Source: Escherichia coli
Lineage (GTDB): Bacteria; Pseudomonadota; Gammaproteobacteria; Enterobacterales; Enterobacteriaceae
DNA length: 64,000 nt
Strand: one strand, 5' to 3'
Assembly (NCBI RefSeq): GCF_003334785.1
Contig: NZ_QOWV01000004.1
Positions 5,288-6,095 of the stretch are shown here, piece after piece; within the stretch, counting starts at the first letter, position 1, and every line of letters begins with the position of its first letter. Below the pieces are notes generated by a model. It saw only the letters and a list, made by a program, of their open reading frames with translations. It searched no databases and had not been told where the DNA came from. A program made the translations under genes and the position numbers.

Positions 5288-5704
5288 TTAATCAATAAAC
5301 AAGGCGGGAGAAATGCCGAATCGCGTTGCCAATTTTTTAGCGTGTTCCAGCGTTAATTTCCTCTTCCCGCTCAAAACGCGTGACACCATAGATTTACTGC
5401 CAATTTCCGGCAGATCGGAAAGGGTTAAACCATATTGATCCATAAGGGTACGAATCACGGCTATACCGCCAGGCATGGCTTGAGCCATGGCATTAAATTC
5501 CGCAAATTCGGGCGCTGATTCTTCCCACGCGGTTATTTTGGCACACACCAGATCCAGCAAGGGGTTTTCAGGATCGTTGAGCAGCAGATGATCTACCAGT
5601 TCCAGCGCCTGGGTGTATTGTTCCTCGTTCTGAATACCCGCCAGAAAAGGTGCCACAGCAGTTAGCTTTTCTCCTGCTTGCAAGATGTCGGCAATCGCAA
5701 TCAT
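5288..5704 (-). CDS. higA: HigA antitoxin, 138 aa, helix-turn-helix (XRE-like) at the C-terminus
   Basis: Start ATG overlaps the higB stop by 4 nt (ATGA, 5701-5704); toxin-first gene order. Confidence 0.85.
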   Translation of the reverse strand: MIAIADILQAGEKLTAVAPFLAGIQNEEQYTQALELVDHLLLNDPENPLLDLVCAKITAWEESAPEFAEFNAMAQAMPGGIAVIRTLMDQYGLTLSDLPEIGSKSMVSRVLSGKRKLTLEHAKKLATRFGISPALFID

Positions 5705-6015
5705 TTTTTCCCCTTAGTACGATGAACAGCGGTAAAGAAATCGTATTCTTTATGCGTCATAACTTCACGTATGTAGCACTTTTGCGATTCAAAAAAGACC
5801 ATTGCTACAACACGTAATTCATTGCCCCCAACATTGAAAACATAATGCTTATCCAGATATTTGAAGTTATCCAGAGATGGGAATACTGCTTTTAATGACT
5901 CAGGTTTTTTGAAATATCCCTTAGCAATCGTGTTCCCCAGAGCCACCAACTCCGTTTTATGTTGCGGGTATTTTTCCGCAGCATCTTTCAATGCTTTTTG
6001 AGTTATCAGGTGCAT
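5701..6015 (-). CDS. higB: HigB toxin, 104 aa, RelE/ParE-superfamily mRNA interferase
   Basis: Small basic ORF immediately upstream of and overlapping higA. Confidence 0.85.
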   Translation of the reverse strand: MHLITQKALKDAAEKYPQHKTELVALGNTIAKGYFKKPESLKAVFPSLDNFKYLDKHYVFNVGGNELRVVAMVFFESQKCYIREVMTHKEYDFFTAVHRTKGKK

Positions 6016-6095
6016 TCTTCATCACGTCCGTTGACAAATTGGCAATATGATAACATCCGTTGCCAGATTGGCAACGGATGAATTTATCTGTGTGA
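6016..6095 (-). promoter_or_regulatory. higBA promoter/operator region with two palindromes (ccgttgacaaattggcaa... and ccgttgccagattggcaacgg)
   Basis: Perfect 9-bp-arm inverted repeat ccgttgcca-gat-tggcaacgg directly upstream of the higB start. Confidence 0.55.

Follow-up and report, generated by a model that had tools for sequence, protein, structure and literature searches.

The segment between fadH and rlmG raises two questions: whether the pair of short open reading frames found there is a higBA toxin-antitoxin operon and, if so, how many HigA dimers its promoter can hold. The initial annotation of the window (the whole stretch of 64,000 nucleotides of Escherichia coli DNA that was analysed) had described a toxin-first pair with palindromic operators and REP elements on either side. 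We inspected the region 5100-6400 for open reading frames and repeats, and compared it with orthologous loci and with 5,426 complete E. coli genomes.

The higBA operon and its promoter

The RefSeq annotation of identical DNA, found by megablast among the complete E. coli genomes, gives the gene row fadH, higA, higB, rlmG. The features are as follows.

3225-5243, plus strand: fadH, an open reading frame of 672 aa, convergent with higBA
5288-5704, minus strand: higA (RefSeq name), the antitoxin and repressor gene, an open reading frame of 138 aa
5701-5704, minus strand: ATGA shared by the higB stop codon and the higA start codon, read as TCAT on the plus strand
5701-6015, minus strand: higB (RefSeq name), the toxin gene and first of the operon, an open reading frame of 104 aa
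6299-7465, minus strand (shared with higBA): rlmG, an open reading frame of 388 aa upstream of higB

The reading frames, the TCAT at the junction and the RefSeq names agree with the toxin-first pair with a 4-nt overlap that had been proposed between fadH and rlmG, and its assignment to higBA is borne out by the proteins. HigB (104 aa) matches the Pfam family HigB_toxin (PF09907, E 4e-22) and aligns over its full length with the solved E. coli HigB chain 5IFG_A (E 6e-68). HigA (138 aa) carries a C-terminal HTH_3 domain at residues 84-135 and aligns over its full length with solved HigA (5IFG_B, 6JQ4 and 6KML; E 1e-86), and the solved E. coli HigB/HigA structures matched by the two proteins are 5IFG, 6KML, 6KMQ and 6JQ4. 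An NCBIfam HMM scan assigned neither HigB nor HigA to a family, which means only that NCBI names them by another rule. [quoted passage not shown] The window DNA is 100% identical to that of strain FORC 064, with one difference per 1,101 bases from MC4100; over the promoter, identity to the K-12-type higBA locus amounts to 99.9-100%. Judged by its sequence, the locus is the chromosomal type II toxin-antitoxin operon higBA (formerly ygjN-ygjM) of the E. coli K-12 type. It shares its position and its fadH/rlmG flanks with the HigB-HigA (YgjN-YgjM) system described by Christensen-Dalsgaard et al. (2010) and shows no substantive difference from it. The feature is ordinary, already published and nothing new in kind; a classical K-12 locus whose structures are solved, whose promoter is mapped and whose autorepression has been demonstrated carries little weight as a discovery.

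The promoter elements and repeats upstream of higB are the following.

6021-6074: 29-bp direct repeat carrying O2 and O1 (units 6021-6045 and 6050-6074, 84% identical)
6027-6045: O2, an imperfect inverted repeat, coding strand TTGCCA-ATT-TGTCAA-CGG, downstream of the -10 box and ahead of the higB start codon
6047-6055, minus strand: extended -10 element TGtTATCAT, in which TG precedes the hexamer TATCAT (6052-6047)
6054-6080: O1, a perfect 12+3+12 palindrome, CATCCGTTGCCA-GAT-TGGCAACGGATG, spanning the -35 box and the spacer
6069-6074, minus strand: -35 hexamer TTGCCA, the same bases as the O1 left half-site

The palindrome ccgttgcca-gat-tggcaacgg of the initial annotation was located at 6057-6077, within perfect arms that in fact reach 12 nt (6054-6080). 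The second, related inverted repeat, ccgttgacaaattggcaa, was found at 6028-6045; it is imperfect and is the direct-repeat partner of O1. The core of O2, TTGACA-AAT-TGGCAA, is complementary at 5 of 6 positions. The higB promoter is sigma-70-like, with a 16-nt spacer and a TG-extended -10, scores 10/12 and is the sole good match on the minus strand. Its elements fall partly within and partly between the two repeats: the -35 box is covered by O1, and O2 follows immediately downstream of the extended -10, in keeping with the overlap of operators and promoter that had been claimed. Since the -10 box sits between the sites, O2 extends over the expected start site and the beginning of the transcript, and a dimer of the repressor bound at O1 or at O2 would obstruct RNA polymerase. 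An Rfam search returned nothing in the higBA operon or its promoter, and the operator strings TTGCCAGATTGGCAA and their variants matched no paper in a full-text literature search.

Christensen-Dalsgaard et al. (2010; PMC2814082) mapped the 5´ end, and thereby the start site, of higBA; their Figure 1B marks a putative -35, -10 and Shine-Dalgarno sequence, with inverted repeats as putative protein-binding sites. Their lacZ fusions showed the promoter to be repressed by the locus and also by HigA alone, and induction of higBA required Lon. Nanomolar operator binding by both HigA and HigBA is stated in the passages of two reviews (PMC8138530 and PMC11869752) that cite Jadhav et al. (2020). Taken together, PMC2814082 and those review passages describe an antitoxin that binds and represses its operator, a toxin that cleaves translated mRNA and an antitoxin that is labile to proteases. 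A 2025 paper in NAR (PMC12266136) names the E. coli hig sites O1-O2.

The region is almost certainly a higBA toxin-antitoxin operon in which HigA or HigBA represses its own synthesis through inverted repeats on a sigma-70 promoter. In this mechanism, a single sigma-70 promoter upstream of higB would drive both genes, with the translation of higA coupled to that of higB via the ATGA overlap. HigB would act as a ribosome-dependent mRNA endonuclease of the RelE fold and would be neutralized by the N-terminal part of HigA, whereas the C-terminal XRE-type helix-turn-helix would bind DNA as a HigA dimer. HigA alone, or the HigBA complex, would occupy inverted repeats of the form TTGCCA-N3-TGGCAA; on O1 it would cover the -35 box and the spacer, and on O2 the start site and the early transcribed region. 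With the promoter so occupied, RNA polymerase would be excluded, and the operon would therefore repress itself. Under stress, degradation of HigA by Lon or Clp would derepress the promoter.

Paired inverted repeats in orthologous promoters

A chance origin of the palindromes in an AT-rich intergenic region has a practically negligible probability. Short inverted repeats are common, and nothing further speaks for chance. However, perfect palindromes with 12-nt arms and spacers of 0-6 nt are expected about 0.03 times per 64 kb (7 x 64000 / 4^12), and four, O1 included, were counted in the 64-kb window when arms of 12 nt or more and spacers up to 6 nt were allowed. The other three look terminator-like, with flanking A/T runs or a T-rich tail just past a stop codon. 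The longest perfect palindrome in the window, with 15-nt arms (61769-61800), directly follows the stop of the open reading frame 61178-61762, is itself followed by TTTTCC and resembles an ordinary intrinsic terminator. Within the 64-kb window, exactly two matches to the degenerate core TTGMCWNNNWGKCAA occur, at O1 and O2, compared with 0.11 expected from shuffles, and two matches were reached in 2 of 100 shuffles. This core has the form TTGMCW-N3-WGKCAA, and its restriction to O1 and O2 within the 64 kb, together with its conservation across genera, refutes a chance origin.

Conservation was followed through HigA homologues and their contigs; a scan of contigs with HigB gave just four close loci, hence the route through HigA. 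A tblastn search of plasmids returned distant HigB relatives only (at most 40% identity), which were left out of the operator comparison. The HigA proteins share between 93% and 55% identity with that of the window, and nine promoters were aligned. The orthologues cover seven genera and three chromosomal contexts:

Escherichia albertii: HigA 93%, rlmG-higBA-fadH
Metagenomic contig with a Kluyvera-like promoter: HigA 83%, rlmG-higBA-fadH
Citrobacter: HigA 78%, rlmG-higBA-fadH
Scandinavium (two): HigA 72% and 65%, rlmG-higBA-fadH
Buttiauxella: HigA 60%, downstream of a P-type ATPase gene
Cedecea: HigA 57%, downstream of a P-type ATPase gene
Enterobacter: HigA 55%, adjoining ilvB

The higBA promoter of the metagenomic contig is near-identical to that of Kluyvera georgiana. 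The toxin-first order is kept in 9 orthologous loci, and the called genes overlap by 4 nt in all orthologues except Scandinavium. Far-upstream DNA cannot be aligned among the nine promoters, whereas the O1 core GTTGMCW-N3-TGGCAA, with a left half of GTTG(C/A)C(A/T), is invariant across them. In Escherichia, Kluyvera, Citrobacter, Buttiauxella, Cedecea and Enterobacter both sites stand at the same positions with respect to the start codon and the -10 box. The palindromes are therefore not absent from orthologous higBA promoters, an outcome that the initial annotation had named as refuting its reading; paired sites occur in most of the promoters examined. The centre-to-centre spacing of O1 and O2 varies between 27 and 31 bp among the orthologues, and this variability gives no indication of strict helical phasing or of obligatory cooperativity.

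Whether both sites are bound is the point on which readings differ. It may be that O1 alone is a real HigA operator and that O2, unbound in vivo, is kept as the start site and 5´ UTR or as a relic of the 29-bp duplication. One review (PMC10135005) counts E. coli higBA among the single-operator modules, the related HigA2 of Vibrio cholerae has one operator, and the E. coli copy of O2 is imperfect. Both Scandinavium promoters, moreover, have a degenerate or lost left half of O2 and keep the first site alone intact. Conversely, the full O2 motif is kept at the same position, as the same inverted repeat, in 7 of the 9 aligned promoters, and the 2025 paper speaks of two sites. Enterobacter carries a perfect palindrome at the O2 position and an imperfect copy at O1; this exchange argues that O1 and O2 are the same kind of site and that O2 is not a mere conserved 5´ UTR. 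We consider a single operator unlikely, although the reading retains some weight, and we infer from the conservation that O2 would be a second, independently bound HigA site. Of the two HigA dimer sites proposed initially, the paired, promoter-overlapping and conserved repeats thus stand, while their occupancy by two dimers is the part drawn from conservation and is at odds with the review. The comparative footprint defines a HigA core motif, TTGMCW-N3-WGKCAA, and supports two sites over one.

Compared with other hig systems, the E. coli operon shows both similarities and discrepancies. The HigB2-HigA2 module of V. cholerae is also toxin-first, its antitoxin likewise combines an N-terminal toxin-binding part with a C-terminal XRE helix-turn-helix, and its inverted-repeat operator overlaps the core promoter. 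However, that operator is a single TGTACGC-N5-GCGTACA between the -35 and the -10, whereas E. coli has two sites of the form TTGCCA-N3-TGGCAA, and HigA2 differs in a disordered N-terminus that adds affinity. The HigB-HigA system of Proteus vulgaris Rts1 resembles that of E. coli in its toxin-first order and in two promoter operators, O1 and O2, with a HigA dimer on each; in contrast, the helix-turn-helix of its HigA lies at the N-terminus. The Rts1 toxin belongs to a Pfam family other than PF09907. The operators of the two systems are unrelated in sequence, and HigBA of P. vulgaris fails to bind the hig DNA of E. coli (PMC12266136).

The O1 arms continue beyond the conserved 7-nt half-site with bases that are still complementary and lineage-specific in sequence. 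Each arm gains five complementary bases in E. coli, three in Citrobacter (CGAG/CTCG), eight in Scandinavium (CACAAG/CTTGTG), eight in Cedecea (GCCCGCAAG/CTTGCGGGC) and none in Kluyvera or Enterobacter. Possible causes, as judged from nine sequences, are wider HigA contacts, a hairpin against read-through or a mutational process that symmetrizes palindromes. The O1 hairpin might also, or mainly, function at the RNA level and halt transcription that runs on from the co-directional upstream gene rlmG on the minus strand or, in antisense, from fadH on the plus strand. Such a role would account for arms that reach past the HigA core with lineage-specific sequences, and complementarity is maintained between the differing arm extensions of E. 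coli, Citrobacter, Scandinavium and Cedecea. A plus-strand scan made a terminator-like call on 6054-6080, the minus-strand RNA of O1 folds at -23.8 kcal/mol (z = -5.1), and there is no second terminator-like site between rlmG and higB. However, good folding is expected of any perfect palindrome, and the T-tract that follows the stem on the minus strand (UUAUCAUAUU) is poor. Kluyvera and S. lactucae, whose modules likewise adjoin rlmG, have no continuous extension (S. lactucae has three distal complementary bases at most), and one O1 arm is mismatched in the three variant-class E. coli promoters examined. An RNA-level function for O1 therefore appears quite improbable.

Allelic states and the repeats at the flanks

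Among the 5,426 complete E. coli genomes, the locus was found in three states, counted as follows.

higA present: 4,377/5,426 (81%)
5´ part of higB and promoter segment present (whole-module class): 2,848/5,426 (52%)
higA only: about 1,529/5,426 (about 28%), by subtraction
no higA: 1,049/5,426 (about 19%)
window 5778-6102: segment absent from the 325-bp deletion allele (IAI1 and Nissle 1917)
1544-1655 in O157:H16 Santai (L003) and 2486-2604 in N779 (L021): empty-site alleles

The 325-bp deletion takes most of higB, the promoter and both operators, and higA is annotated as intact in IAI1 and Nissle 1917. In IAI1 the deletion locus lies at 2005-2275 of the extracted sequence (L002), equivalent to window 5778-6102. 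An orphan higA at the same site in CFT073 and NRG857c has been described (PMC7232551). Both higA-less genomes examined have an empty site of about 110 bp between fadH and rlmG, with a single BIME. Several genera carry the module at this rlmG-fadH site, and the deletion and the empty site are thus best read as losses. We reject a recent insertion of the module between REPs in view of the order rlmG-higBA-fadH in E. albertii, Citrobacter, Scandinavium and the Kluyvera-like metagenomic contig; a loss is the simpler account of the empty site.

No promoter-like site was detected upstream of the orphan higA in IAI1, and its expression may depend on read-through from rlmG. That the toxin-less higA is no decaying remnant but is retained, is expressed by such read-through and acts in trans, either as immunity to incoming HigB-family toxins of plasmid or phage origin or through regulation of other genes, seems improbable. 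A HigA homologue 62% identical to K-12 HigA was also observed without a HigB gene among phage-type genes (L017, 2501-2917), where its neighbours include a DNA methyltransferase (phrog_359) and a UmuD-like protein (phrog_3469). No TTGMCW-N3-WGKCAA motif was found near this homologue. It may be a phage-borne, toxin-less antitoxin and could serve as a phage counter-defence against HigB.

In the promoter-bearing genomes, the segment 6016-6095 is identical to the window in 1,505 and differs at 1-4 positions in 1,332. Position 6062 of the window, in the right arm of O1, is a G/T polymorphism on the coding strand (TGGCAAC versus TGTCAAC). All three of the sampled variant-class promoters have TGTCAAC, and E. 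albertii and E. whittamii share that base, suggesting that the perfect O1 palindrome is probably a derived, lineage-specific state. The three quantified allelic states and the lineage-specific palindrome add modest context, useful for the design of operator mutants and for higBA presence and absence in population genomics. In a single genome, E. coli 24A16CRGN010 (L025, about 1490-1540; window 6045-6075), a loss of 29 bp between the units of the direct repeat has joined O1 and O2 as one hybrid site and eliminated the -10 box; higB and higA are full-length.

The repeats at the two flanks of the operon differ in kind.

5254-5284: left-flank hairpin, GCCGGATGC-AAC-GCATCCGGC, downstream of both fadH and higA
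6197-6284: right-flank BIME, a pair of inverted full REPs that separates the higBA promoter from rlmG

The right flank has the features of E. coli REP/BIME elements, which are extragenic, imperfect palindromes of roughly 35 bp that combine a GCCGGATG head with a tail of the CTTATCCGGCCTAC type and occur in many copies per genome; in the median E. coli genome, 6197-6284 is matched at 23 places. A search of this BIME against Rfam gave sub-threshold hits only, to the REP-derived family naRNA4. The left flank consists of a 9-bp stem and a 3-nt loop with two opposed REP-head motifs (GCCGGATGCAACGC) and no REP tail. It was seen at this locus only, in a blastn search whose 47-nt query makes it insensitive, and in alignment it corresponds to the left REP of the empty-site allele. 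The REPs claimed on both sides are thus, on the right, a true REP pair with the GCCGGATGCGRCG head, but on the left two opposed heads only, a short hairpin without a tail and apparently not a full REP. The REP-head motif is dispersed genome-wide and occurs 23 times in the window, against 2.9 expected. A further REP/BIME array with a period of about 100 bp lies at 2800-3200, between ygjK and fadH, where it appears as repeated REP-head matches and repeated spurious open reading frame translations.
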